This document shows, piece by piece, positions 25,910-46,277 of a DNA stretch of 64,000 bases. The stretch is from Bacillota bacterium (GTDB lineage: Bacteria > Bacillota > JAAYKD01). The notes below the pieces were generated by a model. The model searched no databases and was not told where the DNA came from. It saw only the letters and a list, made by a program, of their open reading frames with translations. A program made the translations under genes and the position numbers. Where the stretch lies: NCBI GenBank assembly GCA_012522585.1, contig JAAYKD010000049.1, positions 2,808 through 66,807 of the forward strand, read 5' to 3'. The number at the start of each line of letters is the position of its first letter. Position 1 is the stretch's first letter.

Positions 25910-26890
25910 CTATTGCAAAATTTCTGCTTGAGTAAAAAGAGCGCCATAGCCACCTGTGTGGAAAATGCAGATCTTTTGATCGCCAGAAATCTCACCTAGC
26001 TTGGCTTTTTCTAAAAGCCCGGCCAGAGTTTTACCCCCATAAACCTGCTCAAGAAAAATCCCTTCTCTGGCTGCTAAAGATCTGATCGCAGCCCTGCTTT
26101 GGGCTGTGGGTTCTGCGTAGCCTGAGCCTAGAGTGTCGTCGCTGAGCAGAGCAAATCGGGAATAGTGTTTTTGGGGTTCGATTCCGGTCAACTCAATCAA
26201 CTGCAACCAGATTTCTTCAATCTTTTTTTCCATAATCTTGAGGGGATATTCTACCGAGATCACATGAACTTTAAAAGGTGCATCGAGCAGAGCCGTTCCA
26301 TATAAAAAACCTGTTGCTGTAATATTCATGGCTCCGACTATGAAGACATGATCAAACTTTAATCCTAAGGATTGTGCTTGTTCCACCAATTCAAAAGCAC
26401 TGTCAGCATAGCCCAGTGCTCCTAAAGCTGGGTCTCCAATCAAATAAGGTCTAAAGCCTTGCTCCCGCAATCTATTCACTTCTTGAGCAACCTGGATATT
26501 TCTTTCCTCTTCACTGATCGCTCCTAAAAAGACAGCTTGAGCTCCTAGCAAATCGTTGAGTAAAAGATTACCTTCCAACTTTTCAGGTTTCTGATCATTG
26601 TGGTAGATGCGACAATTTAAATTCAATTTTGCACAGGCCGCAGCCGTCAAACGGCACTGATTGCTCTGTAAACCTCCTGCTGCAATGATTAAATCTGCTC
26701 CTTCCTTTTTAGCTTGGGCCAACCAATATTCCAAATTCCTCAATTTGTTGCCGCCTAAGCCTAAGAGCATAGAATCGTCTCTTTTCATATAGAGGTTATC
26801 AAAACCATGATGCCGGCCAAAATTTTCCAGCTTTTGCAAAGGGGTTGGCTTCTCAAAAAGCTTTACCTTATCAAACTGATAGAACTGCAT
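25910..26890 (-). CDS. PLP-dependent D-cysteine desulfhydrase/ACC deaminase family protein
   Basis: 'GGNKLRNLEYWL' lysine motif. 326 aa. Confidence 0.8.
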   Translation of the reverse strand: MQFYQFDKVKLFEKPTPLQKLENFGRHHGFDNLYMKRDDSMLLGLGGNKLRNLEYWLAQAKKEGADLIIAAGGLQSNQCRLTAAACAKLNLNCRIYHNDQKPEKLEGNLLLNDLLGAQAVFLGAISEEERNIQVAQEVNRLREQGFRPYLIGDPALGALGYADSAFELVEQAQSLGLKFDHVFIVGAMNITATGFLYGTALLDAPFKVHVISVEYPLKIMEKKIEEIWLQLIELTGIEPQKHYSRFALLSDDTLGSGYAEPTAQSRAAIRSLAAREGIFLEQVYGGKTLAGLLEKAKLGEISGDQKICIFHTGGYGALFTQAEILQ

Positions 26891-27647: not shown

Positions 27648-28514
27648 TTAAAATTCTTCTCTTTGGCTGACTTGTATGATATTTTCCATTTCTAAATCTT
27701 CGATCTCTTCCATGGATTTTTCCAAAGCCATGAGTTCTTGGGTCAATTGACTCAATTCGAAACGCAGGCTTTCCTGACCCCAAGTCGTGGTATTGATCAG
27801 TCTGGCTCTTAAACTGGAAAGGGCACTCTCCAGGGTATCTAAATGAGCTTGCAAGAGAATACTGCTTTGACGGACTCTTTCCAGAGCTTTCAATTCCTGC
27901 TCCTTAAATTCAGCCGCTCGCCTGTATTGCAGCCCTGCTTCAAAACTGACAGCATGCTCAGCTTGGCGCAAAAGCCGGTCTGCTTCTTCTCTGATGGCTT
28001 GTAAATTTGAACTTTCCAAAAGAGAAGCGAGCCTTTGGTCTCGGTTTAAAAGCTCATAATAGCCTAGAAAACCGTTGATTGACTGAGTTAAAACTTCTTG
28101 GGTCAGAGGTTCATGCAAATCTTCGATGCGATTGAAATCAGCAAACATTTCCCTTTCCAGTTTGCGAATTCTATCGTAACGATTGCGCTGATAATTTGGC
28201 CTGGTTCGCTGCCTTTCGTATTTTCTCGAAGCTTCTCTTAAAGTTTTTTGTAAATCCGTTAGATTTTTTATGGTCCATTCTTTTTGGACCTTTTCCTTAA
28301 ATTCTTCTGAGAAAAGTGTTTTTAACCAAATCGAAATAAGGCCTATGCCTCCCGCTGCCAAAATAGCCAATCTCAGGGGCAAAAAAATCCAGGGGAGGCT
28401 AATGCCTCCACTGAAATTAATTACACCAATGATGGTTGCGATGACAATTAGAAAGGTCGCAGGCCTTAAAATCAAGGATTTTAAGTAATACGAAACCGGC
28501 GGCGATTTAATCAC
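27648..28514 (-). CDS. Membrane-anchored coiled-coil protein, partner of PspA (product unknown)
   Basis: Two N-terminal TM helices followed by about 200 aa of coiled coil. Its GTG start overlaps the pspA stop by 8 nt. Confidence 0.5.
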   Translation of the reverse strand: MIKSPPVSYYLKSLILRPATFLIVIATIIGVINFSGGISLPWIFLPLRLAILAAGGIGLISIWLKTLFSEEFKEKVQKEWTIKNLTDLQKTLREASRKYERQRTRPNYQRNRYDRIRKLEREMFADFNRIEDLHEPLTQEVLTQSINGFLGYYELLNRDQRLASLLESSNLQAIREEADRLLRQAEHAVSFEAGLQYRRAAEFKEQELKALERVRQSSILLQAHLDTLESALSSLRARLINTTTWGQESLRFELSQLTQELMALEKSMEEIEDLEMENIIQVSQREEF

Positions 28515-29289
28515 TGGGCCCCATCTCCTGCTTAATTTTCTCTAAGCGTTCTTTTACTTGTTCTTCTTCCAGAGTTCCGGCTTTTTCCAAGACTTCGGTC
28601 TCACTGATTTCAGCTAAGCCCATCTGAGCTTTTAATTGGGTTAGGCGCTCTTGAGCCTGCAGGCTCTTCAGATCATCCTGTAAGTTTGTAAATTCTGCAT
28701 TTAAATTGATGCTACCCATTTCTGTCAGAGCTTCTGCCCTAGCTTGCTTTTCTTGTATCTTTTCTCTGGCTCTCTCCCATGAATCTTCTGTTGTTTCAAA
28801 GGAAATACCACTCAAGGCTTCGTTCAACTTTTCTGTAATCTGAGCTTGCTTCCATTGAGTTTGTAATTGCAATTTTTCTCTGTATTTTGCCTGAACCTGA
28901 GCCTCAAAAGCTTTGACCTGCTTTTTGACCAGTTCACTGGCTTCTGTAGCTTTTTCAAATTGAGCTTGCAAAGAAGCAACAGTATCTTCCGATGCGATCA
29001 TCTGTTGCATGACTTGTTCAGCTAAATCATCTCGGCCCATTTGCAGAGCTTGCTTGACTTGAGCTTCCATTGTTTTGTATTTTTGTTCCTCGTCCCGCAA
29101 CATCAATTCAACCTGATTCTTTTGTTGAATCACCTGGATTGCCTGTTTGCGCACTTGGCCTTGTTTAGCCCGCAATTCATTTTGGGCTGCTTCCAAAATT
29201 GCATTGGGATCTTCAATAGCACTGATCCCCATACCGAACCACCCTTTTATGGTAATCCATAAACGGTTTAATAAACCCATATTCTTCAC
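28507..29289 (-). CDS. pspA: PspA/IM30 (phage shock protein A / LiaH-like) family protein
   Basis: N-terminal amphipathic helix followed by coiled coil in the PspA/IM30 arrangement. There is an AAGGAG RBS. Confidence 0.8.
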   Translation of the reverse strand: MKNMGLLNRLWITIKGWFGMGISAIEDPNAILEAAQNELRAKQGQVRKQAIQVIQQKNQVELMLRDEEQKYKTMEAQVKQALQMGRDDLAEQVMQQMIASEDTVASLQAQFEKATEASELVKKQVKAFEAQVQAKYREKLQLQTQWKQAQITEKLNEALSGISFETTEDSWERAREKIQEKQARAEALTEMGSINLNAEFTNLQDDLKSLQAQERLTQLKAQMGLAEISETEVLEKAGTLEEEQVKERLEKIKQEMGPSD

Positions 29290-29376: not shown

Positions 29377-29415
29377 AAAAAAAGAGCTCCGAGTCAATCG
29401 GAGCTCTTTTTTCTT
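29377..29415. terminator. Rho-independent terminator at the end of the FtsX/ABC operon
   Basis: aaaaaagagctccg-agtcaat-cggagctcttttttc. Confidence 0.8.
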
Positions 29416-29418
29416 TAT

Positions 29419-30957
29419 TTATTTGCTTGTCTGAACCGAATTCTCCAATCGCGCTCTTCTTCGGCCCTGTTCCAAGTTTTTCTGATGTCGGATTTCATCT
29501 TGCAGAATATGAGCAGGATAAGGATAGCGACCGGCTTCAGGATCATCCGGCTTGATGGCCATATGCCCGCTGTCTCGGTTATACTCAACGACTTCCCCAT
29601 CACAAGGTGAACGCCATTCGTGATAACGCAAGCCTAAGTACATTTCCTGAGTGGCTACAACTTCTCCCTCTTTGACCCGGTCTCCAACTTCTTTCAAGAG
29701 GATTCCTTCGATCCGCCCATCTACTACATCAAATTTAAGGAATCGCAAATTTTCTTTGTCCTCACGCATTAAAATCCAACCGGTAGGTTTGGCCAGATGA
29801 TCGATATCCGTCCGAACAATCGGTATATTGCGGGCGAAGAGCAATTGGTTGACCGTTGCTACCTTGGCCAAGATGGTGGGGAAAGAAATAGCTGCGATCA
29901 TCACAGCCAAGGTGTAAAAGGAACCTTGCAAAACAAATTTAGCTAACTCAGAAGAAGGTATGGCACTAAACCAGCTGATTCTTTGGCCTAAAAGCATGAC
30001 AATGATCATCCCGGCAATAACACCGACTAATCCGGCTGAACCTTGTTCTAAGCCAAGAGCATAGACAATTTGACCGTTGGAAACACCAATCGACTTCATA
30101 ATGGCCAGTTCTCGCCTTCTTTCTAGGAAGGTTATAAAGGCAACGGTTAAAACACCGATTCCCATAAACATAAAAATCAAAACCAAAAGCCAGCGTCCCG
30201 GCTGAAAAATCTGTTGGAGTAAGGCTGTGCCCATATCCGTCGTCACCGTCGGATAGATTAAAACAGCGTCGGGATAAGCTGCCCTCATCCATTCCACCAG
30301 ATGAGGCAACTCTGATTCTGCCCTGTTATATTGAATGAAAAAACGGTTAGGAGCAGCATCCTGTCTGATCAGGGCTGCGCTTTCTGTTTTGATCAAGGGG
30401 AGATCAAGATCGTAATCTGTTTGATAAAAACCGGAAATAATAAATTTATATTGAACTTGGACTCCATCTTGCAAAATATTGTAGACATAAAATTCGTCGC
30501 CTAAGCTCAAGTCGAATTGATCAGCCATCTGACTGGGCAAAACAATATCATCTTCATCGACCAGCCAGTTGCCCTCGATCAAAAAATCAGACTTAAAAAA
30601 GTGACTATTCTCTTCTATACCTAACAGTTCTATTTGCCCAGTTTCACTTTTGACAATTATTGAACTGCCTGTTTCTGCTTTTTTCAGAATCGGTCTTCTG
30701 AATTTGGGAGTGGGCAATTGGCTTTCCGGTATAATCGGGCTGTTCTGATCTCCCATGACCATTAAATCATAGGGCAAGTTTAGCTCTACTGTTTGAGCAA
30801 CTCCAATTTGCGAAGAAACAGTCAGCATGCCGCTGTATAAGACGAAAAGGGCAAAGGAACCTGCTACCAAGATAAAAATTGTCAATAAACGCCAGCGCCA
30901 ACGCCAAATATTTTTCAAAGCCAATTGGGTGGTTGCAACGAAGGAAATCATGTTCAT
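29419..30957 (-). CDS. FtsX-like ABC permease (type B) with a ~135-aa cytoplasmic C-terminal barrel-sandwich/biotin-lipoyl-like domain
   Basis: 4 TM in FtsX topology with about 200 aa of extracytoplasmic loop after TM1. The C-terminus reads '…VGDRVKEGEVV…SPCDGEVVEY'. Its start overlaps the ATPase stop (ATGA). Confidence 0.7.
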   Translation of the reverse strand: MNMISFVATTQLALKNIWRWRWRLLTIFILVAGSFALFVLYSGMLTVSSQIGVAQTVELNLPYDLMVMGDQNSPIIPESQLPTPKFRRPILKKAETGSSIIVKSETGQIELLGIEENSHFFKSDFLIEGNWLVDEDDIVLPSQMADQFDLSLGDEFYVYNILQDGVQVQYKFIISGFYQTDYDLDLPLIKTESAALIRQDAAPNRFFIQYNRAESELPHLVEWMRAAYPDAVLIYPTVTTDMGTALLQQIFQPGRWLLVLIFMFMGIGVLTVAFITFLERRRELAIMKSIGVSNGQIVYALGLEQGSAGLVGVIAGMIIVMLLGQRISWFSAIPSSELAKFVLQGSFYTLAVMIAAISFPTILAKVATVNQLLFARNIPIVRTDIDHLAKPTGWILMREDKENLRFLKFDVVDGRIEGILLKEVGDRVKEGEVVATQEMYLGLRYHEWRSPCDGEVVEYNRDSGHMAIKPDDPEAGRYPYPAHILQDEIRHQKNLEQGRRRARLENSVQTSK

Positions 30958-31655
30958 CTGGGCCGCACCTCAATGTCCTCGATTTTACCGTCCATCATTG
31001 AAATTACCCGATGAGCATAAGAAGTAAGGCTCGTATCATGGGTAATCAGGACAAATGTCTGCTTCTCCGTTTCGTTAAAGCGACAGAATAATTCAATTAC
31101 CATGTCCCTGGTCTTGCTATCCAGATTTCCTGTCGGTTCATCGGCTAAAACGACGGCAGGTTTATTGGCCAAAGATCTGGCAATCGCCACTCTCTGTTGT
31201 TCACCCCCGGAAAGTTGATCGGGACGGTGATGGGATCGGGGAGTCAGACCGACTTCATCCAATAAAAATCTGGCTCTTTCTCTCGCTTCGTTCCTGGCCA
31301 TCCCGGAAATCGACATGGGTAATTCCACATTTTCCAAAGCACTCAAATGAGGTATCAGATTGAAAAACTGGAAGACATAGCCGATATTTTTACGTCGCAT
31401 CAAAGCCAATTCATCTTCATTTAATTTGACGATGGATTTGTCATTGATCAGAATATCTCCACTGATCGGTCGATCCAATCCGCCCAAAAGGCTGAGCAAG
31501 GTACTCTTACCGCTGCCTGAAGGGCCGACGATTATGGCAATTTCTCCCGGCATAACTTGGATGTTGACATTGTTAACGGCATAAACCGCTTCACCTAAAT
31601 AGAAGGCTTTGTTTAAATTTACAGTCTCGAGAATTGGGCGCTTAGTATTTTCCAT
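30954..31655 (-). CDS. ABC transporter ATP-binding protein (MacB/LolD-type NBD)
   Basis: Walker A 'GPSGSGKSTLL', signature 'LSGGEQQRVAIAR', Walker B 'VVLADEPT'. Confidence 0.9.
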   Translation of the reverse strand: MENTKRPILETVNLNKAFYLGEAVYAVNNVNIQVMPGEIAIIVGPSGSGKSTLLSLLGGLDRPISGDILINDKSIVKLNEDELALMRRKNIGYVFQFFNLIPHLSALENVELPMSISGMARNEARERARFLLDEVGLTPRSHHRPDQLSGGEQQRVAIARSLANKPAVVLADEPTGNLDSKTRDMVIELFCRFNETEKQTFVLITHDTSLTSYAHRVISMMDGKIEDIEVRPR

Positions 31656-31665
31656 ATTTATCCTC

Positions 31666-33120
31666 CTATTCGTTGCGCAAAACAGTCATGACCGACATAC
31701 CGGCCATCTTCAAAGCGGGCACTAAACCAAAAATTAAAGAAACAATACCAGTTGCCAATAAGACCTTGATCAAGTCTTCGCCAACTGAAGTCATCACAGT
31801 TAAAAACTTCTGACCATTGGTAAACTGATTCAAAGCTCCCGGTAGACGGAAAACCAGAAAACCGATTAAAGCTCCAAATAAAGCTAAGATCAAAGCTTCG
31901 GTCAAGGCCATGATGGTAATATCCAGACGCTTAGCGCCCACAGATTTTAAAATAGCCATCTCTCTTTTTCGCTCGTTGATCATGATCAGCATATTGGCTG
32001 CGACCAGCAAGGCTGCATTGAGTAGAACCAGGCCCATAATGGGCAAGCGCAAGTCCATTGCCATGCCTTGCTGAGTTGCTTTATGCTCGCTTGCTTCAAC
32101 CACCTGAGTAGGCACCGTGATAAACTTCTCAATCAGCTGCCTCTGCATAGCCATCAGGGCTTGATTGGGAACGCTCACGAAACTATAATCAGAAAATTCT
32201 TTGACTAAATTCAAGACCGTATCCTCTAAATAAGTTAGGTCATCGGCTTGCACAAGTACCTGAGAAATCGGATAAGCCAAATCGCCGGCACTTTCCTGCC
32301 AAATCTCCTGCCAAGTGCTCAAGGGGATCTGAATTTCATTGTTCCACCAGTATAGTCTCTCCGTCTGAGTATCCATTTCACCTTGCCAGCTAAATTCTCT
32401 GGTCGGGGCGACGAAGTTGCCAATCACTTTAAATTCTCGACGAATAGTATTGATATAATCGATTCTTATATCTTGATTTTTATCGAGTTTAAAAGTTGGA
32501 AATTCCAAATAAAAAACACTTCCCGGCTCAGGAGCCGCCATGCCTTGGGGCAGATCCATCATTCTTGAGATTATAGCGACATTTTGACCCTGGTCCCCTT
32601 CTTCAAAATAACGACCGCTATAGATCAAATCCTGCAAGGAATTGAGACGGTATTCCTCAGAAAAATCTCGCCCTCGGATGGGGGTTTCGACACGAAACTG
32701 CTCACTCAAAAGAGTAAAAGCAGGCAATCTATAATAAGGACTAACTGAGCTGACCCCTGAAGCTTGAGCCATCTCGACCAGATCTTCAGACTTAAAGTTG
32801 ACAGTTTGGGAACTGTTCAAATAACCTTGAGTAAAAATTTCCGGATGAAAAACATCAAGGTCAGTAAAAGGCTCCTCCGTTGGACGGTTAAATTCCCAAA
32901 AAGCATCGTCTTGGGGCATTTCACCCTGAATTTTTGAAGCATAGGCGATGGCTTCACCGCCTAAAACTTGACGAAACACGCTATAGGCTTCATGAGAATA
33001 GCCTCTGCTCAAACTGATTGTATAAGTTAAAAATGCAGCTGCCACTGCCATGGATGCTATTGCCAACACACTTCTGGCTAAATTTCTCCAAGCATTGACA
33101 GCGCCTAGACGAAAGAACAT
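31666..33120 (-). CDS. FtsX-like ABC permease (type A) with a large extracytoplasmic domain
   Basis: 484 aa with TM1, a ~330-aa extracytoplasmic domain, then 3 C-terminal TM helices. The N-terminus 'MFFRLGAVNAWRNL' matches its paralog at 35751. There is a GGAGG RBS. Confidence 0.75.
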   Translation of the reverse strand: MFFRLGAVNAWRNLARSVLAIASMAVAAAFLTYTISLSRGYSHEAYSVFRQVLGGEAIAYASKIQGEMPQDDAFWEFNRPTEEPFTDLDVFHPEIFTQGYLNSSQTVNFKSEDLVEMAQASGVSSVSPYYRLPAFTLLSEQFRVETPIRGRDFSEEYRLNSLQDLIYSGRYFEEGDQGQNVAIISRMMDLPQGMAAPEPGSVFYLEFPTFKLDKNQDIRIDYINTIRREFKVIGNFVAPTREFSWQGEMDTQTERLYWWNNEIQIPLSTWQEIWQESAGDLAYPISQVLVQADDLTYLEDTVLNLVKEFSDYSFVSVPNQALMAMQRQLIEKFITVPTQVVEASEHKATQQGMAMDLRLPIMGLVLLNAALLVAANMLIMINERKREMAILKSVGAKRLDITIMALTEALILALFGALIGFLVFRLPGALNQFTNGQKFLTVMTSVGEDLIKVLLATGIVSLIFGLVPALKMAGMSVMTVLRNE

Positions 33121-33123
33121 AGA

Positions 33124-34077
33124 TTAACCTCCGATTATTTCTGCCATTGTACCTATTTCAATATTACCTCCACTGAGCAAACAGACACAATTTTTATCAG
33201 CGATCTCCTGGTCATACTTCCAGTATGCTGCTAAAGTAATTGCCGCTGAAGGCTCAGCCCAGAGTTTCGTTGCTTCGATTAAGGCTCTTGTAGCCTCTCT
33301 GATTTCCTCTTCTTCAACAGAGATGACTTGATCGACATATTTTTTGGCTTGATGATAAGCTATTTGTCCGATCTTTTTAGATCTGATGCCATCGGCAATA
33401 CTGGGTTGCCATCTTTCCAACTCCCAAGGCTCTCCTTTAGCCAAGGCTAAGCGCAAACGAGAGCTTAGAACAGGCTCAACCCCAACTATTTTAGCTGAAC
33501 TTCCCAATTCTTTCAAGGCTGTAGCCACACCGGATAAGAGGCCTCCTCCACCGACCGGAACAAAAACATAATCCACTTGAGGCAAGGAGCGGAAAATCTC
33601 TAAACCGATGGTGCCTTGACCGGCCACTACATGGGGATGGTCATAGGGATGAATCAGGGTCATTCCTTGTAGGGCAAACTCTTCTGCTTTAGCCAATCTT
33701 TCCGTGGTGGTCAAACCATGAAAGACTACTTCAGCTCCATATTTTTGACAGGCTTTTACTTTAGCCGCTGAAGCGTCTTGGGGAACAACGATAACTGCTT
33801 TGGTTTGCAAAAGAGAAGCGGCATAGGACACGGCGATACCATGATTGCCGGAAGAGCCGGTGACTAAACCCTTTTTTAAATCTTCTTGAGTTAATTGTAC
33901 TGCACAATTGTAGGCCCCTCTAATTTTAAAAGACCCGGTCTTTTGCAAATTTTCGCATTTAAAATAGAGGCGACCTCTTTTCTCGCGACTCAAACTTTCG
34001 TTTTTTAGCAAGGGAGTTTCCAGGACAATATCTTCCAGATTCTTTTTGGCTTGATAGATCTCTTTGAGCCCCAGCAT
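33124..34077 (-). CDS. PLP-dependent threonine/serine dehydratase family enzyme
   Basis: 'FKCENLQKTGSFKIRGAYN' PLP-lysine motif. AGGAGG sits 7 nt before the ATG at 34077; the ORF-track start is a TTG. Confidence 0.8.
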   Translation of the reverse strand: MLGLKEIYQAKKNLEDIVLETPLLKNESLSREKRGRLYFKCENLQKTGSFKIRGAYNCAVQLTQEDLKKGLVTGSSGNHGIAVSYAASLLQTKAVIVVPQDASAAKVKACQKYGAEVVFHGLTTTERLAKAEEFALQGMTLIHPYDHPHVVAGQGTIGLEIFRSLPQVDYVFVPVGGGGLLSGVATALKELGSSAKIVGVEPVLSSRLRLALAKGEPWELERWQPSIADGIRSKKIGQIAYHQAKKYVDQVISVEEEEIREATRALIEATKLWAEPSAAITLAAYWKYDQEIADKNCVCLLSGGNIEIGTMAEIIGG

Positions 34078-34252
34078 AAATTCGCCTCCTAATTTTTCTT
34101 TCAATGTAAAATGTTTCGCTGAACGAAGAATTTTTCCTGCTTAATTTCCTCTTATCTCCTTTGAATTACCAGATTAAACAGAAAACGGCCAAATACAATA
34201 AAAAAATCTCTCTCTAAAACTCAAAACATTGAGATTTCAGAAAAAACAGATT

Positions 34253-35758
34253 TTAATCTCTCTTATTAAAACGAGGATAATTATGACGAGGGGCATCTTT
34301 ATCTGCAGGATCGATAATATATTTGCCATTGGCTTCATTATAGGATAAAACCCTTCCGTCAACAGGGGCCAGCCATTCTTCATAGACCAAGCCTCCCAAG
34401 GAATACTTAAAAGCTATAGTTTCACCTTTTTTGACCAGTTCATCGGGCCAGCGCAGGAGCACCGAGAGAGATCTTCCATCAACCACACTTAGTTTCAAGA
34501 TATGGGTGTTCTCCTCTTCCATCTCTCTGAGCCAATCTCCAGACGGATTGACTATATGATCATAAGAGCGTTTGAGCAAGGGGATTTCTCTTGAATATAA
34601 TAATTGATTTACTCCAGCCGCTTTGGCCAAGAGCAAAGGATAGATGATGGCCAGAATATAGAAAAACAAAACCAAAAGGATATTGATTAGAGAGAGCTGC
34701 AGAAACTTGTCCCAGGACAAGCTGGAGCTGGTCAAAGTGCCAAAAAGCAAAGCTGAACCCAGAAGACCAACAGCCAAACCAAAAACACCTGCAGCTCCGG
34801 CTTCGGCCAGAAAAAGCCCTAAGGCTTGATTGTTTCTGATTCCCAAAGTTTTGAAAATAGCCAATTCTTGTTTGCGCTCCAGGAAAGCCAAGAGGTTGAG
34901 GGTTAAAACTGCCACAGCCATAAAGATAAAGACCAGAAAAATCACCCAATTACCCGGACTTTGAATCACTCTGTTCAGTTCTTGAAAGCGTAAGAGGGGT
35001 GTTTCTTTTAAAATGAATTCTGCTCCGGGATAGAGCCGGGCCAGGGTGTTGTTAAAAAAGGTAAAATCCCTTAAATTATCAAAGCCACTGACTTGCAAAA
35101 ACTGACGATTGAGGTTTTTTTGCCCGCTTATTTTCTGAGCTGCTCCTAAACTGATTTGAGCTTGATCCAAATCGTAATGCTCTAAACCGATGGCGCTGAC
35201 AGTCAGGTTCAAACTTTCCTTAATACCCAGATCGTTTTTATAGAGAGCCACAAACTCATAGCCCAAGGCTAAATCGTATTGCTCGGCTAAGTTTTTAGGC
35301 AGATAAATTTCATCATCCTTTTCAGGCCAGCTACCCATGATCTTTCCTTGACGTAAAAATATGCTTTCCTCGGACACTCCCAAGACCTCAAACTCGCTCA
35401 AAGGAGTCTGAAGCTTCAAGGCTAAAGCGCTGTCACTGGCACTAACAGTCACAGGAATACTGGCACTGCGGCCCCGACTATACCCGGAAATATTGGCAGC
35501 ATAGGAAGCCAAGACGGGAAAATCCGTCAGGGGCCTTTGTCTTCCGGTCATTTGGATTTGCACATCATAGGGAATATTCAAAGGTCGAATCAAATCTGTT
35601 TTTCCTAGCCCTTGACTCTCCATCATACTGCCGTAGAGCAAAGCAACACTGACGCTGCCCGCTACCAAAGTTGCCATGAGCAGAAATCGCCAGCGCCAGC
35701 GCTTGATATTTCTGATTATTAAGCCACCAAGTGATAATGTGTCGAACCTCTTAATCAA
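34253..35758 (-). CDS. FtsX-like ABC permease (type B', paralog of 29419..30957) with the same C-terminal barrel-sandwich-like domain
   Basis: Same topology. N-terminal 'RNIKRWRWRF' matches 'KNIWRWRWRL'. The C-terminus reads 'KKGETIAFKYSLGGLVYEEWLAPVDGRVLSY'. Confidence 0.7.
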   Translation of the reverse strand: MIKRFDTLSLGGLIIRNIKRWRWRFLLMATLVAGSVSVALLYGSMMESQGLGKTDLIRPLNIPYDVQIQMTGRQRPLTDFPVLASYAANISGYSRGRSASIPVTVSASDSALALKLQTPLSEFEVLGVSEESIFLRQGKIMGSWPEKDDEIYLPKNLAEQYDLALGYEFVALYKNDLGIKESLNLTVSAIGLEHYDLDQAQISLGAAQKISGQKNLNRQFLQVSGFDNLRDFTFFNNTLARLYPGAEFILKETPLLRFQELNRVIQSPGNWVIFLVFIFMAVAVLTLNLLAFLERKQELAIFKTLGIRNNQALGLFLAEAGAAGVFGLAVGLLGSALLFGTLTSSSLSWDKFLQLSLINILLVLFFYILAIIYPLLLAKAAGVNQLLYSREIPLLKRSYDHIVNPSGDWLREMEEENTHILKLSVVDGRSLSVLLRWPDELVKKGETIAFKYSLGGLVYEEWLAPVDGRVLSYNEANGKYIIDPADKDAPRHNYPRFNKRD

Positions 35759-37283
35759 GTCTGAGCACCTCCATCACCGGTAATTTGGCATATTTTCGGG
35801 CTGGCATCCAACCAAAGAGCAGAGCTGCCGCGAGAGAAACCGTCAGGACGGTCAGGAAATCTCTAAAAAACAGGAGCAGCAGATAAAACAGACCCATGGG
35901 ATTGGTCAGCTGATTGAGCACTGCCTGAATTCTGATAAAGAGAAAGCCGAAGGAAGCACCCAAAGCTGTAATCAAAGCGGCCTCAGCCAAAATCATCAAA
36001 ATTATTTCCTTTTCTCTGGCTCCGATCGCTTTCAAAATAGCAATTTCATCCTTGCGTTCGGAAACTAATATTAAAATATTGGCAGCCACTAACAAACCTG
36101 CATTGATCATGACTAAAAGGGTTATGGGTTTGCGTAAATCAGCCTGGATTACTGTTTGTTGAACTAAGGAGCTGCGCTCCTGTAACATGGCCCTGGCTCC
36201 GGCTGGAATCTTGGGCTCCAAGCTGAGATTGTCGTGGATTTGTTTTTGATATTCGGGCAAGCCATGAAAGCTGAACTGGGGAAATTCTCTTTGTAAATCG
36301 TAAACTATATCCTGGAGATAACTCAAATCCTTGACTTCTAATAAAACTTCAGCCGGCTTAAAATCAGCATAGGGGCTTAAAGATTGCCAAATCTCCAACC
36401 AAGTCTCTTGAGGCAAATAGAATTCATTAAAATAGACGTAAATCTCCTCGGTCACCCAGCCGTCTATGCCCACTTCGTAATCGACAGTCCGACTGACCAC
36501 ACTCAAATGGCCGATGATTTCCACTTCAATTTCTTCAGCATCAGTAAAATCAACATTCCACTTGTGCCCTAGATCATTGATTTTTGGTAATTTTATTCGC
36601 ACCTTTTGACCTACAGCGGGGGTTTTAGCCAGGCCCTGTAAATTCATGTTTTCAGAAATCACAGCCACATATTTACCCTGATCTTCAGGGGAGAACCAAC
36701 GACCTTGAACTATCGAACTCTCCAGGGAGTAACGGTCCTCTTCCTGACAAGCCTTGGCTTGCAGACCAATTGCAGTCAAAACGTCGGGGCCTTGAGTGGA
36801 ACCATCTTCCCCTTGCACCAACAAATGAGGAGGCAAAGGTGTCTTCAAAGCGTCTAAATCAACCTGCTGAGCCATTTCAGCCGGCAGCCTATATAAGGGC
36901 TTGGCTGCAACAACAAAAGGCTGCTCAGCCAGTTTTTCTAAATCTGTTAAATCAAACTCCCTGAGAGCTTGGCTGGGCTTTAAAAAGCCTGTTTGGGCTA
37001 ATTGGGGCTGAAGATAATTGAGGCTGGCAAAAGGGCTCACTGCCCCTTGTTCGAATTCCCATTCTTCCTGCTGAGAAGAAAAATCAGCCGTTGTTTTCAT
37101 CGCCTGAACCAGTATTTCCCCACCTAACATAGAACTCAGCGGTTGACCGGCATGTTGGGCATAGCCTTTGCTCAAGCTGACGGTAAAGGTAAAGAACGAG
37201 GCGGCTAAAGCCATCGCTAAAATAGCTAAAATGCTGCGTTGCAGATTTCTCCAGGCATTTTGAAAACCGAGTCTTATAAACAT
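35751..37283 (-). CDS. FtsX-like ABC permease (type A', paralog of 31666..33120)
   Basis: N-terminus 'MFIRLGFQNAWRNLQRS'. Its stop and the next gene's start overlap by 8 nt. Confidence 0.7.
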   Translation of the reverse strand: MFIRLGFQNAWRNLQRSILAILAMALAASFFTFTVSLSKGYAQHAGQPLSSMLGGEILVQAMKTTADFSSQQEEWEFEQGAVSPFASLNYLQPQLAQTGFLKPSQALREFDLTDLEKLAEQPFVVAAKPLYRLPAEMAQQVDLDALKTPLPPHLLVQGEDGSTQGPDVLTAIGLQAKACQEEDRYSLESSIVQGRWFSPEDQGKYVAVISENMNLQGLAKTPAVGQKVRIKLPKINDLGHKWNVDFTDAEEIEVEIIGHLSVVSRTVDYEVGIDGWVTEEIYVYFNEFYLPQETWLEIWQSLSPYADFKPAEVLLEVKDLSYLQDIVYDLQREFPQFSFHGLPEYQKQIHDNLSLEPKIPAGARAMLQERSSLVQQTVIQADLRKPITLLVMINAGLLVAANILILVSERKDEIAILKAIGAREKEIILMILAEAALITALGASFGFLFIRIQAVLNQLTNPMGLFYLLLLFFRDFLTVLTVSLAAALLFGWMPARKYAKLPVMEVLRLD

Positions 37284-37379: not shown

Positions 37380-37431
37380 AACAATTAAATATAAATAACA
37401 AGAGGAAAAGAAAAAATCTTTTCCTCTTGTT
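37380..37431. terminator. Bidirectional rho-independent terminator at the 3' end of the lysine-fermentation operon
   Basis: aacaagaggaaaag-aaaaaatc-ttttcctcttgtt, flanked by A/T runs. Confidence 0.8.
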
Positions 37432-37448
37432 ATGAGAGTATTTGCTTT

Positions 37449-38114
37449 TTAAGATTGGAGAGGCGGACCAAAATCCTTCAAATCATGGCTGACCTGGAAT
37501 TCCGCTTCCGTCTTTTCTCTGATTTCGTCAACTGTAACTCCCTTGCGTTTTTCAATTAAGAGCAATCCGCCTTTAGTGATATCGAAAACGGCAAGTTCGG
37601 TCACAATTTTATGAACCTTTTTGTAAGCGGTTAAAGGCAACTTACAAGTTTTCAGGATTTTTTTAGCGTCCCCTCGAGCCGTATGAGTCGTTACAACGAT
37701 GACCTTTTTAGCTCCGGCGACTAAATCCATAGCGCCTCCCATGCCGGGCACCATTTTTCCCGGAATGATATGGCTGGCCAAGGAACCTTCTTGGTCTATT
37801 TCCAGAGCACCTAAAATAGTCAGATCAAGATGCCCGCCTCTGATGATGGCAAAAGACAAGGCGCTGTCGAAGAAGCTGGCATAGTCTTTAACTGTGACCA
37901 TGGCTGCTCCGGCATTGACGATGTCCGGATTTTGCTCTTCCGGGGAGGCCATTTTATCCATGCCCATAATACCGTTTTCCGATTGAAAGACTGCATGCAC
38001 ATCTTCGGGAATAAAATTGGCGACCATGGTGGGGATGCCGATTCCTAGATTGACTACATCACCATCTTTAATTTCTAAGGCTGCCCTTCTGGCAATGACT
38101 TCTCTCGCGTCCAT
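37449..38114 (-). CDS. ctfB: 3-oxoacid (butyrate-acetoacetate) CoA-transferase subunit B
   Basis: 221 aa, CoA-transferase family I beta subunit. Adjacent to subunit A. Confidence 0.85.
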   Translation of the reverse strand: MDAREVIARRAALEIKDGDVVNLGIGIPTMVANFIPEDVHAVFQSENGIMGMDKMASPEEQNPDIVNAGAAMVTVKDYASFFDSALSFAIIRGGHLDLTILGALEIDQEGSLASHIIPGKMVPGMGGAMDLVAGAKKVIVVTTHTARGDAKKILKTCKLPLTAYKKVHKIVTELAVFDITKGGLLLIEKRKGVTVDEIREKTEAEFQVSHDLKDFGPPLQS

Positions 38115-38116
38115 AA

Positions 38117-38770
38117 TCAGTCTCCTTTCACGATATAATCGACAAAGATACCGGGTGTCGCTACATCTTCCGCTTTGATTTCTCCAATATTGACGTAACT
38201 ATCAGCAGTAGCTAAAACTAAATCTGCAGCCATAGCCATTAGAGGATTGAAATTTCTGGTCGTTCCGTGATAGTAAAGATTGCCAAAGGGATCGATTTTA
38301 CTGCCGTGGATCAGAGCAATATCGGCTCTTAAGGGAGTTTCTAAAAGATAATTTTGGCCATCCACCTCAATTACTCTTTTCCCTTCAGCCACGTGAGTGT
38401 TCATGCCGGTAGCTGTTAAGACACCACCTAGACCGGAACCGCCGCAACGAATTTGCTCGGCTAAGGTGCCTTGAGGCACTAACTCCACTTCCAATTCACC
38501 GGCCCCCATCTGACGACCGGTTTCCGGATTGGTACCGATATGGGAAACTATGACTTTTTTAGCTTTTTGATCAGCGATCAAGCGGGAAATACCTATTTCC
38601 GGCAAGGCTGTGTCGTTGGCTATGATGGTGTAATCTTTTACACCCGAAGCGAGAATTGCATCGATTAAAAGTTCCGGTGTACCATTACCTAAAAAGCCAC
38701 CAATCATGATGGTCATGCCATCACAGAAATGTCTTTGCGCCTCTTCAAGAGAAATTATCTTGTTTATCAT
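38117..38770 (-). CDS. ctfA: 3-oxoacid (butyrate-acetoacetate) CoA-transferase subunit A
   Basis: 217 aa with N-terminus 'MINKIISLEEA…GMTIMIGGF'. Confidence 0.85.
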   Translation of the reverse strand: MINKIISLEEAQRHFCDGMTIMIGGFLGNGTPELLIDAILASGVKDYTIIANDTALPEIGISRLIADQKAKKVIVSHIGTNPETGRQMGAGELEVELVPQGTLAEQIRCGGSGLGGVLTATGMNTHVAEGKRVIEVDGQNYLLETPLRADIALIHGSKIDPFGNLYYHGTTRNFNPLMAMAADLVLATADSYVNIGEIKAEDVATPGIFVDYIVKGD

Positions 38771-38788
38771 TTCATCTCCCCCTCATGA

Positions 38789-39631
38789 TCAGCTATATTG
38801 ATAAAAGCCCTCGTTGGATTTTCGACCCAGTTTTCCAGCCCGCACCATTTTCTTCAAGAGCAGATGAGGACGATATTTAGGATCGAGAGTTTCATCGTGC
38901 AGCACATTTAAAATATCTAAAACTATATCCAGACCGATAAAATCTGCCAGAGCTAAGGGTCCCATAGGATGATTAGCTCCCAATTTCATGGCTGTATCTA
39001 TGTCCTCGGGAGTGGCAACTCCTTCGGCTAAGACTGCCACCGCTTCGTTGATCATGGGAATCAGCAAACGATTGACCACAAAGCCGGGTGCTTCTTCAAC
39101 CTGCACCGATGTTTTCCCCAGAGCTTCAACTATCTTTTGACATTGAGCCAGGGTTTCATCGGAGGTACGCTCCCCTTTGATCAGTTCGACTAATTTCATC
39201 ACCGGTGCCGGGTTGAAAAAGTGCATCCCGATAAAAGCAGTGGGGTCAGGTGAGTGAGCAGCCAATTCGGTTATGGATAGACTGGATGTGTTGCTGGCCC
39301 AGATAGGTTGACCCAAGTTCAGTTCTTTTAATTCTTGGAAGAGCTTTTTCTTGATCTCCGCTCTTTCCGCTACAGCCTCGATGACCAAATCAACTTGACC
39401 CGGCAGCTCCCTTAAATCTTCTAAGAGGTTGAGGTTGTTCAAAATAAGATCTTTATCAGCAACAGTCATCCGCTCTCTGGATACTTGACGTTCTAAGATT
39501 TTCTCAATAGCCACTTTAGCCTTGATTGTAACTTCATTGTTGACATCGTAAAGATAAGTTGGGCCGATACCTGCAAAGCATTGGGCTATACCACTGCCCA
39601 TGGTGCCGGCTCCGATGACCAAAACACGCAT
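38789..39631 (-). CDS. hbd: 3-hydroxybutyryl-CoA dehydrogenase
   Basis: 'MRVLVIGAGTMGSGIA' Rossmann N-terminus. GGAGGGG sits 6 nt before the ATG at 39631; the longer ORF-track entry would overlap crt. Confidence 0.9.
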   Translation of the reverse strand: MRVLVIGAGTMGSGIAQCFAGIGPTYLYDVNNEVTIKAKVAIEKILERQVSRERMTVADKDLILNNLNLLEDLRELPGQVDLVIEAVAERAEIKKKLFQELKELNLGQPIWASNTSSLSITELAAHSPDPTAFIGMHFFNPAPVMKLVELIKGERTSDETLAQCQKIVEALGKTSVQVEEAPGFVVNRLLIPMINEAVAVLAEGVATPEDIDTAMKLGANHPMGPLALADFIGLDIVLDILNVLHDETLDPKYRPHLLLKKMVRAGKLGRKSNEGFYQYS

Positions 39632-39647
39632 ATTAGCCCCTCCTCGT

Positions 39648-40421
39648 TTATTTTGCATTCTGTTTGTCCAAAAAGGATTGCATTCTTTCCTTCTGGTCAG
39701 GATGAGCAAAGCAAGCTTTAAAATGTTCGGCTTCCTGCAAGAAATCAGCAGCCGATGCGTCGGCATGAGCATAGGCAAAGATATTGGTCAGTTTATCAAT
39801 GGCGACTTGGCTGTTGTTGAGGATGCGTTTCAAAGTATCGTCTAACATTTCTTCCAATTCCTCAGGCTGAGCTAAGAGCTCAACTAAACCAATGCGATAA
39901 GCCTCTTCGCCACCGACTGTTTTTCCTGTGTACATCATATATTTAGCTCTGCCTTCACCGATTAAACGGCCTAAACGAAAGACTCCGCCAAAACCTGGGA
40001 TGATGCCTAAGCCTGTTTCCGGTAAAGCAAAACGGGCATTAGGAGTAGCAATCCGAATATCACAGGCTATAGCCAATTCCATACCGCCCCCTAGAGCATA
40101 ACCGTGGACCACAGCTATGGTCGGGATAGGCAGTTGCTCCAATTGAGCAAAGACTCGATTGCCAAACATGGAAAAATCAAAAGCTTGTTCAGGGGTATAA
40201 TCGACCATTTCAGAAATATCCGCTCCGGCAACAAAAGCTCTGTTGCCTGAACCTCTGATCACTAGGCAGCGATAGTCGGGATGCTCTCCCACTTCTCTGA
40301 TCGCTGTGCTGAGTTCTGAAAGCACTTCGGTGTTCAAAGCATTTAAAGCTTGGGGACGAGTAATCGTCAAGGTTATAACATTGTTTTCTACTGAGGTTTT
40401 AATATACTTCATTTTAAACAC
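39648..40421 (-). CDS. crt: Short-chain enoyl-CoA hydratase (crotonase)
   Basis: 257 aa, crotonase fold (…[15 protein letters not shown]…). Confidence 0.85.
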
Positions 40422-41607
40422 ACCTTTCGTCTCTTTTAACGATCAGAGCTTCACCCATGCCACCGCCGATACAGAGGGTGGCCAAGCCGATTTTAGCATC
40501 TCTTTTTTCCATTTCGTGTAAGAGTGTGACTAAAATTCTAGTGCCGGAGGCTCCGATAGGATGACCTAGAGCAATAGCTCCTCCGTTAACATTGACTATT
40601 TCAGGATTAAATCCCAATTCTTTGTTGACTGCCAAGGATTGGGCTGCAAAAGCTTCGTTGGCTTCAATTAAATCTATATCTTCCAAATTCAATTTTGCTT
40701 TAGCCAAAGCTTGTTTGACCGAAGGAACAGGACCTATTCCCATGATGGAAGGATCGACGCCAACGGAACCGGAGGCTAGGATAACCGCCATGGGCTGCAA
40801 ATTGTTTTCGACCAAAAAGGATTCGCTACAGACGATCACTGCCGCTGCTCCATCATTGATACCGGAAGCATTACCGGCGGTGACGCTGCCGTCTCTTTTA
40901 AAGGCAGGACGTAATCTGGCCAAACCTTCGATGGTGCTACCGGCTCTGGGATGTTCATCCTGATTGAAAATAGTGACATTTTTTCTCCTGTCGACCAGGG
41001 ATACATCGACAATTTCAGCATCGAAACGCCCACTGTTTTGAGCTGCTTCTGTTTTTAACTGAGAATTTAAGGCAAATTCATCTTGCTCTTCTCTGCTCAA
41101 ATTATATTGCTCAACTAAATTTTCTGCTGTGATGCCCATATGATATTGATTGAAGACGTCGGTCAAGCCGTCATAGACCATCAAATCCACGGCTTCTCGA
41201 TTGCCCATTCTGGCACCGTAGCGCAAATCTTTGAGAACATAAGGAGCTTGGTTCATGTTTTCCATGCCCCCAGCAACCACACACTCAGCTTCTCCTGCTA
41301 AAATACTGCGACGAGCATATTCAACTGCATTGAGGCCGGAACCACAGACTTTGTTTAAAGTCATAGCCGGACGCTCGATGGGAATACCGGCAGCAATAGC
41401 CGCTTGTCTGGCTGGGTTTTGCCCATTAGCTGCCTGCAAAACCTGACCCATGACTATTTCATCCACTTTTTCCGGGGCTACACCGGCTCTGTTTAAGGCT
41501 TCTTTGATGACAATAGCACCTAAATCCTTGGCTGCTGTATCCTTGAGGCTACCGCCCAAGGCTCCAATAGCTGTCCTGCATGCTCCCAAAAGATAGACTT
41601 TTTCCAT
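40414..41607 (-). CDS. thl: Acetyl-CoA C-acetyltransferase (thiolase II)
   Basis: 397 aa with thiolase N- and C-terminal signatures (…NKVCGSGL…, …CIGGGMGEA…). Confidence 0.9.
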
Positions 41608-41636
41608 TTTCTTTTCCCCTTCCTCATATTTAAATC

Positions 41637-42386
41637 TTAAAAATTGCTCTCTTTTCTCCTGATCAATTCTTTGACCATAAAGGTTGCCACATCGTCGGCA
41701 TATTTACCGCTGCCAAACCCGGCATCGTAACCCAACTCTTTAGCCAACTCATGGGTAATGCGAGCTCCTCCACAAATGAAGACCATTTTATCTCGCAAAC
41801 CTTCAGCTTCGGCCATTTCGATTAATTCGGTTAAATTATGTATATGTATATCCTTTTGAGTGACCGTTTGAGAAACCAAAATAACATCGGCATTTTCTTG
41901 AACCGCTTTTTGCAAGAGAGTTTCGTTTAAAACCTGACTGCCTAAATTATGAGTGATCAACATGTCGTAGCGTTCCAAACCAAAACGGCCATTGAAGCCC
42001 TTGCGATTCATGATAGCATCGATGCCTACAGTGTGAGCATCTGTGCCTGTCGAAGCTCCGATGACGGTGAGCTTTCGGCCCAATTCTCTTTTGATCAGCT
42101 CGTCGGTTTCTTCAATGGTCAAAGCTTTTTGCTCGTTTTCCAGCACGACAATTGTATCTAAGTCGATGGCAGCTTTGAAAGAACCATAAGCAACATAGAA
42201 TGTAAAGCCTGGGCTCAGACTCTGTTCTTGAGCTATGACAATATCCTCTAAACCCAGCTTCTCCATGATTTGACTGGCAGCAGCTTGAGCTTTCGCTCCT
42301 GCATCCAGAGGCAGAGTAAAACTGATTTGAATTTTACCGTCATTGAGAGTATCTCCATAGGGTTTGATAAAATTTTTATCCTGCAT
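41637..42386 (-). CDS. kamE: Lysine 5,6-aminomutase beta subunit (B12-binding)
   Basis: 249 aa with the B12-binding DxHxxG motif 'TDAHTVG'. Adjacent to kamD. Confidence 0.85.
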
Positions 42387-42405
42387 TTTTCACACCTCTT
42401 TTTCC

Positions 42406-43950
42406 TTAAGACCAGATTTGGCTAAAAGGATTTTCATAGCGCTCATCTTTTTTAGCAACCCCGTCTAATCCTTTGCCTCCCTGGGAAGAACGAGAGATAT
42501 CAGCGAAGACTCCCTTTTCCAAAGCATGAAAGAGTTTGTTTTGATCGATCTCTTCCAGCAATTCCAGGGCCTTTTCTAAAACCAGCTGGGCTCTCTTTTC
42601 AATCTTGCCTCCCGATTTTATTTCCAATTCTTCGGCCAATCCTGCCATGGAAGTAAAGACCATCAGGGCATTTTCTATACTGAGAGCACGATCGGACATG
42701 AAGGGTGTATGAATTGCTTCGGTCAACATGCCTAAGAGGTGGATGTTCTGTCCAGTCAAATATGAAGCGATGTTGAACATGGTGTTTTGGCTCTGACCTT
42801 TAAAAATATTCCCGGTCATGAATTTTGTCGGGGGCATATATTTTAAAGGAGCTTGGGGAAAGAGGCTGCGGGACAGAAGAGCGTGAGCCAATTCCAAGAC
42901 AAATCCACCCTGAACATTTGGGTCGATTTCAAAAGCATGGCCTAAACCCATCTGCTCCGAGGGCAAACCGGCAGCTAAAGCCAATTGTTCATTTAAAATT
43001 TGAGAGGCAATGACGGTATGGGCTTCCTCCACGGCATCGGCAGTGGTCAGATAATTATCTTCGCCGGTGTTGATGATAATACCGGCAACTGCGTTGATTT
43101 GCCTGGAGAAATGCTGGTCGATTAAAGTCCGCTGCATATTGATGTCCCTAAAAAGTATACCATAGAGTGCGTCATTGAGCATCATGTCCAGACGCTCCAA
43201 AGCCCCCATGGCTGCAATTTCAGGCATGCATAAGCCGGAACAATAATTGGTCAGACGGATATAGCGGCCTAACTCCTCTCCCACTTGATCCAGGGCTTGC
43301 CGCATCAGACGAAAATTCTCTTGGGTGGCATAGGTGCCGCCAAAGCCTTCTGTGGTAGCACCATAGGGAACATAGTCTAAAAGACTCTGTCCGGTGGTGC
43401 GAATGACGGCAATGATATCAGCTCCCTGACGGGCCGCTGCCACACTCTGGGTAATATCCTCATAGATATTGCCGGTAGCCACAATACAATAGATCAAAGG
43501 CCTGTCTTTTTTAGGTTCAGCTGCAATTTTCTCTTCCCGTTTTGCTCTTTGTTCAGCGATTTTTTTCAAGCTTTGATTAATATAAGGAGCCAAAACATCA
43601 GAAGCTGTAACTCCCGGGGGAAGAGCAAAGCTGCCCAGCTGAAGCTGGCCTTGATCCACCGCTTCGGCTATTTCCTGAGGGCTCATTTTAGTCTCAAGAT
43701 GAGCTGCTGCAATAAAATAGGCGGCCCCTATGGATAAAAGTCCCCACTCCTTTAAATGTTCAACCAGCACATTGGCATAAGGAGCATAGACTTGATTGAC
43801 CCCGTCGATGCCTAAAAGGCGACAGATGGTCCGTTCAACTGCAACAGTTGTGTGTCCTTGGACAAAAGCCAAAACATCAGAGGCTATACTGGCCCCATGG
43901 GCTTTGGCTTGGGCTACCAGATTTTCATCCAGTTTGATTTGATCGATCAT
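42406..43950 (-). CDS. kamD: Lysine 5,6-aminomutase alpha subunit (PLP-binding TIM barrel)
   Basis: 514 aa. Its start overlaps the kamA stop (ATGA). Confidence 0.85.
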   Translation of the reverse strand: MIDQIKLDENLVAQAKAHGASIASDVLAFVQGHTTVAVERTICRLLGIDGVNQVYAPYANVLVEHLKEWGLLSIGAAYFIAAAHLETKMSPQEIAEAVDQGQLQLGSFALPPGVTASDVLAPYINQSLKKIAEQRAKREEKIAAEPKKDRPLIYCIVATGNIYEDITQSVAAARQGADIIAVIRTTGQSLLDYVPYGATTEGFGGTYATQENFRLMRQALDQVGEELGRYIRLTNYCSGLCMPEIAAMGALERLDMMLNDALYGILFRDINMQRTLIDQHFSRQINAVAGIIINTGEDNYLTTADAVEEAHTVIASQILNEQLALAAGLPSEQMGLGHAFEIDPNVQGGFVLELAHALLSRSLFPQAPLKYMPPTKFMTGNIFKGQSQNTMFNIASYLTGQNIHLLGMLTEAIHTPFMSDRALSIENALMVFTSMAGLAEELEIKSGGKIEKRAQLVLEKALELLEEIDQNKLFHALEKGVFADISRSSQGGKGLDGVAKKDERYENPFSQIWS

Positions 43951-45209: not shown

Positions 45210-45221
45210 TCCTTTCGATAG

Positions 45222-46256: not shown

Positions 46257-46277
46257 AAGAATCTTCCTTTCAAGGAT

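Follow-up and report, generated by a model that had tools for sequence, protein, structure and literature searches.

A predicted cytoplasmic barrel-sandwich domain at the C-terminus of FtsX-type permeases from uncultured Bacillota

Type VII transporters of the ATP-binding cassette (ABC) kind, among them MacB, LolCDE, FtsEX and BceAB, have central roles in the efflux of antibiotics, the sorting of lipoproteins, cell division and the sensing of peptide antibiotics. Their permeases share a fold in which the N-terminus and the C-terminus both lie inside the cell. Here we describe a permease of this type, hereafter B, that carries an additional domain after its fourth transmembrane helix (TM4). It is encoded in a window of 64,000 nucleotides from a Bacillota bacterium (GenBank assembly GCA_012522585.1, contig JAAYKD010000049.1, positions 2,808 to 66,807 of the forward strand), to which all coordinates given without a locus name refer. 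B is an FtsX/MacB-like protein of 512 residues (29419-30957, minus strand), and its tail comprises residues 376-512 (137 residues, 29419-29833 with the stop codon, minus strand). A review of type VII layouts (PMC5985334) includes neither a cytoplasmic permease domain nor a fusion of the permease to an adaptor or to a peptidase, and the literature that we searched describes no C-terminal domain on FtsX/MacB permeases. An earlier reading of the DNA, made from the sequence only, had held that a fused intracellular domain of this kind was undescribed, and we likewise found none in Pfam, NCBIfam or the searchable literature.

B itself has the features of a type VII permease, namely a Pfam FtsX score of 28.6 bits against the gathering score of 25.5 bits (the FtsX domain covers TM2-TM4), a predicted topology of four TMs with a large outside domain of about 200 residues between TM1 and TM2, and a cognate ATPase. 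The four TMs were found by hydropathy, and the full-length AlphaFold2 model, with a predicted local distance difference test score (pLDDT) of 86.6, places the helices at residues 21-54, 238-279, 294-326 and 335-366. Foldseek searches with the full-length model returned LolC/E, HrtB, YtrF, YbbP, MacB, BceB and FtsX with E-values down to 2e-15, over aligned lengths of about 365-435 columns, which is consistent with the permease part minus the tail. A search of 5.8 billion proteins found only 32 homologs of B. The alignment and the conservation values given below are based on 25 of these.

Both B-type permeases of the window carry a tail after TM4, as the sequence-only reading had claimed. In the paralog B' (501 residues, 34253-35758, minus strand; open reading frame with a Pfam FtsX score of 33.2 bits), it spans about 119 residues from the VNQLL motif (residues 383-501, 34253-34612, minus strand) and represents the same domain without the C-terminal helix; the two tails are 41% identical. 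The tail motif of B, GDRVKEGEVVATQEMYLGLRYHEWRSPCDGEV (GDRVKEGEVV...SPCDGEV, G425-V456, 29590-29685, minus strand), corresponds to PDELVKKGE...APVDGRV in B'. The two-part pattern noticed earlier is therefore present in both proteins, although its first half is better written as [GP]-[DE]-x-V-x-x-G-E; the second half is [AS]-P-x-D-G-x-V. When the window was translated in all six frames, a regular expression for the tail motif matched a single time, and in 200 residue shuffles it did not match at all. The tail is kept in all of the aligned family members, with R376, I378, P379, G431, E432, G442 and G454 invariant. The mean pairwise identity is 45% in the barrel-sandwich core, 44% in TM2-TM4 and 30% in the extracellular domain. 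That the core matches the TM region in conservation speaks for functional constraint on the tail, and this conservation is far above chance expectation.

From residue 369 onwards, B can be divided into four segments, all on the minus strand, with secondary structure assigned by DSSP on AlphaFold2 models. The first contains the minor coupling helix and the invariant R-x-I-P linker (residues 369-380, 29818-29853, VNQLLFARNIPI, of the form VNQLLFARxIP). It is the best-conserved stretch of B, with 78% mean pairwise identity and invariant Q371, L372, R376, I378 and P379, and residues 369-377 nevertheless have a pLDDT below 50 in the full-length model. This combination of high conservation and low pLDDT would fit an interface that is ordered only by a partner. 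A strand (residues 381-385) and a helix (residues 393-402), in which E399 is nearly invariant, lead into the core (residues 381-404, 29746-29817). The core itself, a barrel-sandwich hybrid, occupies residues 405-470 (29548-29745) and is modelled with pLDDT values of 89-97. A YPYP motif and a long charged helix (residues 482-511) form the last segment (residues 471-512, 29422-29547), which is variable, with a mean pairwise identity of 26%, and is absent in B' and in the relatives P0012, P0015 and P0025. At the other end of the protein, a cytoplasmic motif N-x-x-R-W-R-W-R precedes TM1 (residues 16-23 of B, 30880-30910, minus strand); its R19, W20 and R23 are invariant in all 25 B-type homologs, and it may form a second cytoplasmic contact surface.

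The fold of the tail was predicted by AlphaFold2 from the tail alignment (pLDDT 89.4) as a strand, a helix, a beta-sandwich and the long C-terminal helix. Foldseek matched this model against the Protein Data Bank to DUF2118 (3d4r), E2 lipoyl domains, NqrA, RnfC, BCCP, GcvH and BesA (E-values of 6e-3 to 8e-2, probability about 1.0), and the matches that we inspected were barrel-sandwich hybrid proteins. The tail profile also matched GcvH (E=0.006) and, more weakly, NusG domain II, BCCP, the E2 lipoyl domain, EIIA-Glc and ZneB. Given these models and matches, the tail is predicted to be a member of the barrel-sandwich hybrid (lipoyl-like) superfamily, Pfam clan Hybrid, with two interleaved half-motifs, and the earlier assignment to a lipoyl-like fold holds. 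Many barrel-sandwich domains are cytoplasmic, as in lipoyl and biotinyl domains, GcvH, EIIA-Glc, NqrA and RnfC, and DUF2118, the N-terminal domain of NqrA and RnfC_N are cytoplasmic without a prosthetic group. The suggestion of the sequence-only reading that a normally periplasmic, adaptor-like fold had been placed inside the cell was not borne out, as the closest Foldseek matches of the tail are cytoplasmic barrel-sandwich proteins.

The tail did not reach the cutoff of any known family. None of the 24 tail-bearing members scanned reached any Pfam cutoff, with sub-threshold matches to HlyD_D23, Biotin_lipoyl, GCV_H, Peptidase_M23, PYNP_C, RnfC_N and NQRA_N; the gathering scores of PF00364 (lipoyl/biotinyl) and PF01597 (GcvH) were missed, with best E-values of 0.017-0.018 in three of the 24 members each. 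NCBIfam likewise held no family that matched the tail, and the tail profile matched only three fragments in a word-indexed protein database. Because no Pfam cutoff was reached and no NCBIfam match was found, we regard the tail as an unannotated family of the superfamily. The tip of the hairpin, where lipoyl and biotinyl domains have their modifiable Lys, is occupied by the invariant G442, and residues 436-449 contain no Lys that is conserved; the two lysines conserved elsewhere, K422 and K429, give way to Arg in some members. The invariant Gly at the tip and the replaceable lysines elsewhere argue strongly against a role as cofactor carrier. In the AlphaFold2 model, the tail is one unsplit barrel-sandwich unit whose halves are joined by a short beta-hairpin, and neither the model nor Pfam showed the alpha-hairpin, the beta-barrel or the membrane-proximal domain of an HlyD/YknX adaptor.

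We searched 1.84 billion cluster representatives with the tail profile (E<=1e-3) and obtained 215 proteins, which fall into three layouts. The first consists of FtsX and the tail in 440-550 residues, and these short forms are the majority. In the second, FtsX and the tail are followed by a fifth transmembrane helix (TM5) and then by an HlyD-type adaptor (1170-1420 residues in total) or by an M14 or S41 peptidase (890-985 residues). The single-chain permease-adaptor fusions include P0038, P0045, P0044, P0060 and P0065 (1170-1420 residues; locus L007, 10001-14143, and locus L020, 10001-14014), and their adaptor is long, with several lipoyl-like units. In P0040 (locus L003, 5232-8147), P0056, P0067, P0071 and P0046/P0177, the enzyme fused after TM5 is an S41 peptidase or an M14 carboxypeptidase, an arrangement that resembles an FtsEX-style hydrolase controller wired in cis. 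When ten relatives were looked up in their clusters, one was named, as an S41 family peptidase from Symbiobacteriaceae. The third layout comprises soluble proteins of 250-450 residues, without a TM, in which the barrel-sandwich domain lies near the N-terminus. These soluble carriers (P0090, P0098, P0113 and about 40 others) have no Pfam match, and the domain lies at residues ~40-125 with E-values down to 3e-18. In locus L008, the gene of one such carrier (8001-9155) follows a gene for a PF13941 MutL-like ATPase, and upstream are a second MutL-like gene and then a gene for 374 residues without a Pfam match. Giant cadherin/Big_9 repeat proteins that also matched the profile (P0086, 4805 residues; P0124, 1431 residues; P0161, 3848 residues) did so over many short stretches, so that these matches are probably repeat-driven and the proteins were not accepted as homologs. 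The taxon-labelled carriers all come from metagenome genomes of Negativicutes, Symbiobacteriaceae, Eubacteriales and Bacillota; so far, the tail domain has been found only in uncultured Bacillota.

The long relatives act as natural topology reporters. In about 19 relatives, a hydrophobic segment preceded by K/R follows the tail, and in those scanned with Pfam it is followed by HlyD, Peptidase_M14 or Peptidase_S41. Because the extra TM of the long relatives comes after the tail, and the outside module comes after TM5, the tail lies between TM4 and TM5 and would be on the inside; among the arguments for the cytoplasmic side, this is the strongest. The means of K+R are 4.4 before TM1, 4.2 in the TM2-TM3 loop and about 1 in the outside flanks, so that the positive-inside rule is followed. 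With 19-residue windows, the hydropathy peak of the tail stays at or below 1.28 in each of the 25 homologs, and the hydropathy profiles of these homologs show no hydrophobic segment between TM4 and the barrel-sandwich domain. A fifth TM in front of the domain, which the sequence-only reading had named as the finding that would place it outside, was accordingly looked for and is absent. Together with the type VII fold found by Foldseek, the K+R counts and the TM5 after the tail agree with the earlier claim of a cytoplasmic C-terminus, and the tail of B is predicted to be cytoplasmic. The likeness to adaptors that had been read into the tail fails in this respect as well, as the true HlyD adaptor of the relatives lies past TM5, on the outside, and the unsplit tail lacks the other adaptor domains. 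In summary, we consider it very probable that the tail is a folded, constrained, cofactor-less barrel-sandwich domain that lies inside the cell, occurs on the B subunit only and starts after the minor coupling helix.

The genes around B form a densely packed row on the minus strand, in the order A', B', a dehydratase-like enzyme dependent on pyridoxal phosphate (PLP), A, ATPase and B. The A' permease (510 residues, 35751-37283, minus strand; open reading frame with Pfam FtsX and MacB_PCD) has no tail and overlaps B' by 8 bases. The A permease (484 residues, 31666-33120, minus strand), of the FtsX type, ends just past TM4 and is likewise tail-less, and all four permeases (A, B, A' and B') score above the Pfam FtsX gathering score. 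The ATPase (233 residues, 30954-31655, minus strand) is of the LolD/MacB type (ABC_tran, 125 bits), overlaps B by 4 bases and is encoded by the sole ATPase gene in the cluster. Against NCBIfam models it scored 243 bits for LolD, 207 for MacB and 203 for FtsE, and missed the LolD equivalog cutoff of 308. We also analyzed the gene context in loci L001/L002, L003, L005, L006, L007, L019 and L020. A tail-less A lies upstream of a tail-bearing B in every locus examined, and there is at most one ATPase gene per two or three A/B pairs, arranged as A'B'-x-A-ATPase-B in the window, ABAB-ATPase in L006 and AB-A-ATPase-Blong-AB in L003.

The tail starts directly past the helix that is equivalent to the minor coupling helix of MacB, a C-terminal helix that contacts the nucleotide-binding domain (NBD) there (PMC5985334). 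Because the tail begins right after a helix that contacts the NBD in MacB, the barrel-sandwich domain would be positioned beside the ATPase. We tentatively propose, as the likeliest of the readings considered if not yet probable, that the tail works in cis on the ATPase, as a module for its docking or regulation. Such a module would keep one copy of the shared ATPase on B, or else it would alter how the ATPase dimer closes; in both cases, ATPase sites that are otherwise identical would differ from each other in the A/B complex. Alternatively, the tail would help B to compete for the shared ATPase pool, and in the long relatives it would in addition link the ATPase-proximal side to the extracellular adaptor or peptidase through TM5. 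A precedent, by analogy and not by homology, for a beta-sandwich module in control of ABC ATPase closure is EIIA-Glc, which binds MalK and arrests MalFGK2 (PMC6906923). Should the tail turn out to bind or gate the ATPase, type VII transporters would be able to carry regulation on their membrane subunit, and the asymmetric use of two identical ATPase sites would become directly testable; such tests need heterologous expression, because all carriers found so far are uncultured Bacillota.

Several points weigh against a module for the ATPase. We infer the contact between tail and ATPase from the position of the tail, and in the single-chain model the domain hangs on a low-confidence linker. Several A/B pairs have no ATPase gene nearby. 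The same barrel-sandwich subfamily occurs at the N-terminus of the soluble proteins described above, which have no ABC context; the domain is therefore portable and not intrinsically specific for an ATPase. In addition, B' and some other members do without the C-terminal helix. A stronger form of the proposal, in which the tail would be a built-in clutch that chooses which A/B pair captures or activates the shared ATPase and, in the long relatives, relays the state of the ATPase via TM5 to the fused adaptor or peptidase on the outside, seems unlikely to us at present. If it were true, ABC regulation would be carried by the permease and not by the ATPase, and type VII transporters would have a second route of mechanotransmission.

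We also considered the possibility that the tail docks not the ATPase but another cytoplasmic partner or a ligand. Candidates would be a protein that delivers substrate, a regulator, or a second A/B complex, in which case the A/B and A'/B' pairs would gather around one ATPase pool. Barrel-sandwich domains serve generally as modules for protein interaction, the subfamily of the tail has soluble homologs that adjoin PF13941 MutL-like ATPases, two or three A/B pairs per ATPase gene are a conserved pattern, and the linker appears flexible in the full-length model. However, no conserved neighbour gene offers a candidate partner, with PspA and the PLP enzyme present only in the closest clade, and the tail emerges exactly at the helix that contacts the ATPase. 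We therefore regard this alternative as possible but doubtful. It is also conceivable that the tail is a leftover of the fusions of FtsX, tail, TM5 and adaptor or peptidase, in which it would be the spacer between TM4 and TM5, and that in the short forms it has no role past folding stability. The long fusions do occur in the same gene-order context (A, then B-long), and the C-terminal helix is variable or lost. A leftover is nevertheless quite improbable, given that, among lineages sharing as little as 32% overall identity, the core is still no less conserved than the TM region, with seven invariant residues, that the short forms are the majority and that both paralogs retain the tail.

A lipoylated or biotinylated swinging-arm carrier on a membrane protein would explain why the fold and the half-motifs resemble those of lipoyl, biotinyl and GcvH domains, but it is hardly credible with a Gly at the tip, no conserved Lys there, Arg in place of K422 or K429 in some members and all Pfam scores below cutoff. 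An HlyD/YknX adaptor-like domain placed outside by a cryptic fifth TM before the tail, for which weak sub-threshold HlyD_D23 matches in five of 24 members and BesA at Foldseek rank 50 speak, is already contradicted by the sequence, as no TM precedes the domain, the extra TM of the relatives comes after it with K/R on the domain side, and an unsplit unit without beta-barrel or membrane-proximal domains is no adaptor.

Other features of the window surround this gene row. The PLP enzyme, which resembles threonine/serine dehydratases (326 residues, 33124-34104, minus strand), lies between B' and A, 3 bases from A; its position between the permease genes is kept in L001/L002 only, and a second PALP gene is found at 25910-26890. 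We considered the enzyme as a partner of the tail and rejected it because the synteny is limited to the closest clade. Past the stop codon of B, after 7 bases, there is a palindromic hairpin with a perfect 15-base-pair stem, flanked by A6/T6 runs (29378-29412); it separates the stop codon of B from PspA and resembles an intrinsic terminator that works in both directions and closes the operon. A second hairpin (37395-37433) precedes A'. The PspA/IM30 gene (28507-29289, minus strand) is located 3' of B, past the first hairpin, and overlaps by 8 bases a gene for a 288-residue protein without a family match, the pair spanning 27648-29289 on the minus strand. Two TMs and a coiled coil were recognized by eye in the 288-residue protein, and the same gene pair occurs downstream of B in L001/L002. 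PspA/IM30 was also rejected as a partner of the tail, since it adjoins B only in the closest clade and the strong terminator hairpin separates the genes. Next to A' is a set of lysine-fermentation genes (37449-47105, minus strand), with lysine 2,3-aminomutase, the alpha and beta subunits of D-lysine 5,6-aminomutase and a BKACE cleavage enzyme; reading the translations by eye added a thiolase, CoA-transferase subunits, a hydroxyacyl-CoA dehydrogenase and an enoyl-CoA hydratase.

Among known systems, LolCDE is the closest in structure. It is the best structural match for residues 1 to about 375 of B (Foldseek E=2e-15), has four TMs and a large outside domain, and combines two different permease subunits with a separate LolD-like ATPase. 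However, in LolC and LolE the chain stops at the minor coupling helix and a tail is missing, and the locus here has two A/B pairs per ATPase. The permease pair is not LolCE, because the equivalog cutoffs were missed widely (19.4 and 23.2 against 362 bits for lolCE). MacAB-TolC, YknXYZ of B. subtilis and Spr0693-0695 of S. pneumoniae have the same permease fold, and the HlyD adaptor of these systems recurs in the long relatives described here. Their adaptor is a separate protein on the outside, whereas the tail, an unsplit domain on the inside, does not represent an adaptor; among the long relatives, the adaptor is part of the same chain, after TM5. FtsEX, which acts with EnvC, PcsB, CwlO or RipC, also shares the fold, and by analogy the outside M14/S41 peptidases of the relatives suggest mechanotransmission to an enzyme. 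In contrast to FtsEX, the enzyme of these relatives is fused in cis via the tail and TM5, and the proteins of the window carry no such enzyme.

For the tail itself, DUF2118 (3d4r), the N-terminal domain of NqrA and RnfC_N are among the top Foldseek matches (E-values of 6e-3 to 3e-2, probability about 1.0), although they have no significant sequence similarity to it (Pfam E>=0.07) and occur in other contexts. Lipoyl/biotinyl domains and GcvH share the fold and the same two half-motifs, from which the tail differs by the missing tip Lys and by scores below the Pfam cutoffs. In the complex of EIIA-Glc with MalK (4JBW), and likewise in the regulatory domains at the C-terminus of MalK, MetN and ModC, a cytoplasmic beta-sandwich module contacts ABC ATPases and controls their closure (PMC6906923), and we draw on these cases as a functional analogy only, claiming no homology. 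EIIA-Glc is a protein of its own and acts on a type I importer, and the regulatory domains of MalK, MetN and ModC are on the ATPase, not on the permease. Set against the layouts reviewed for type VII transporters (PMC5985334), the tail family adds all three that were missing, the cytoplasmic permease domain, the permease-adaptor fusion and the permease-peptidase fusion. To the known layouts of type VII transporters, the tail is a real if modest addition.

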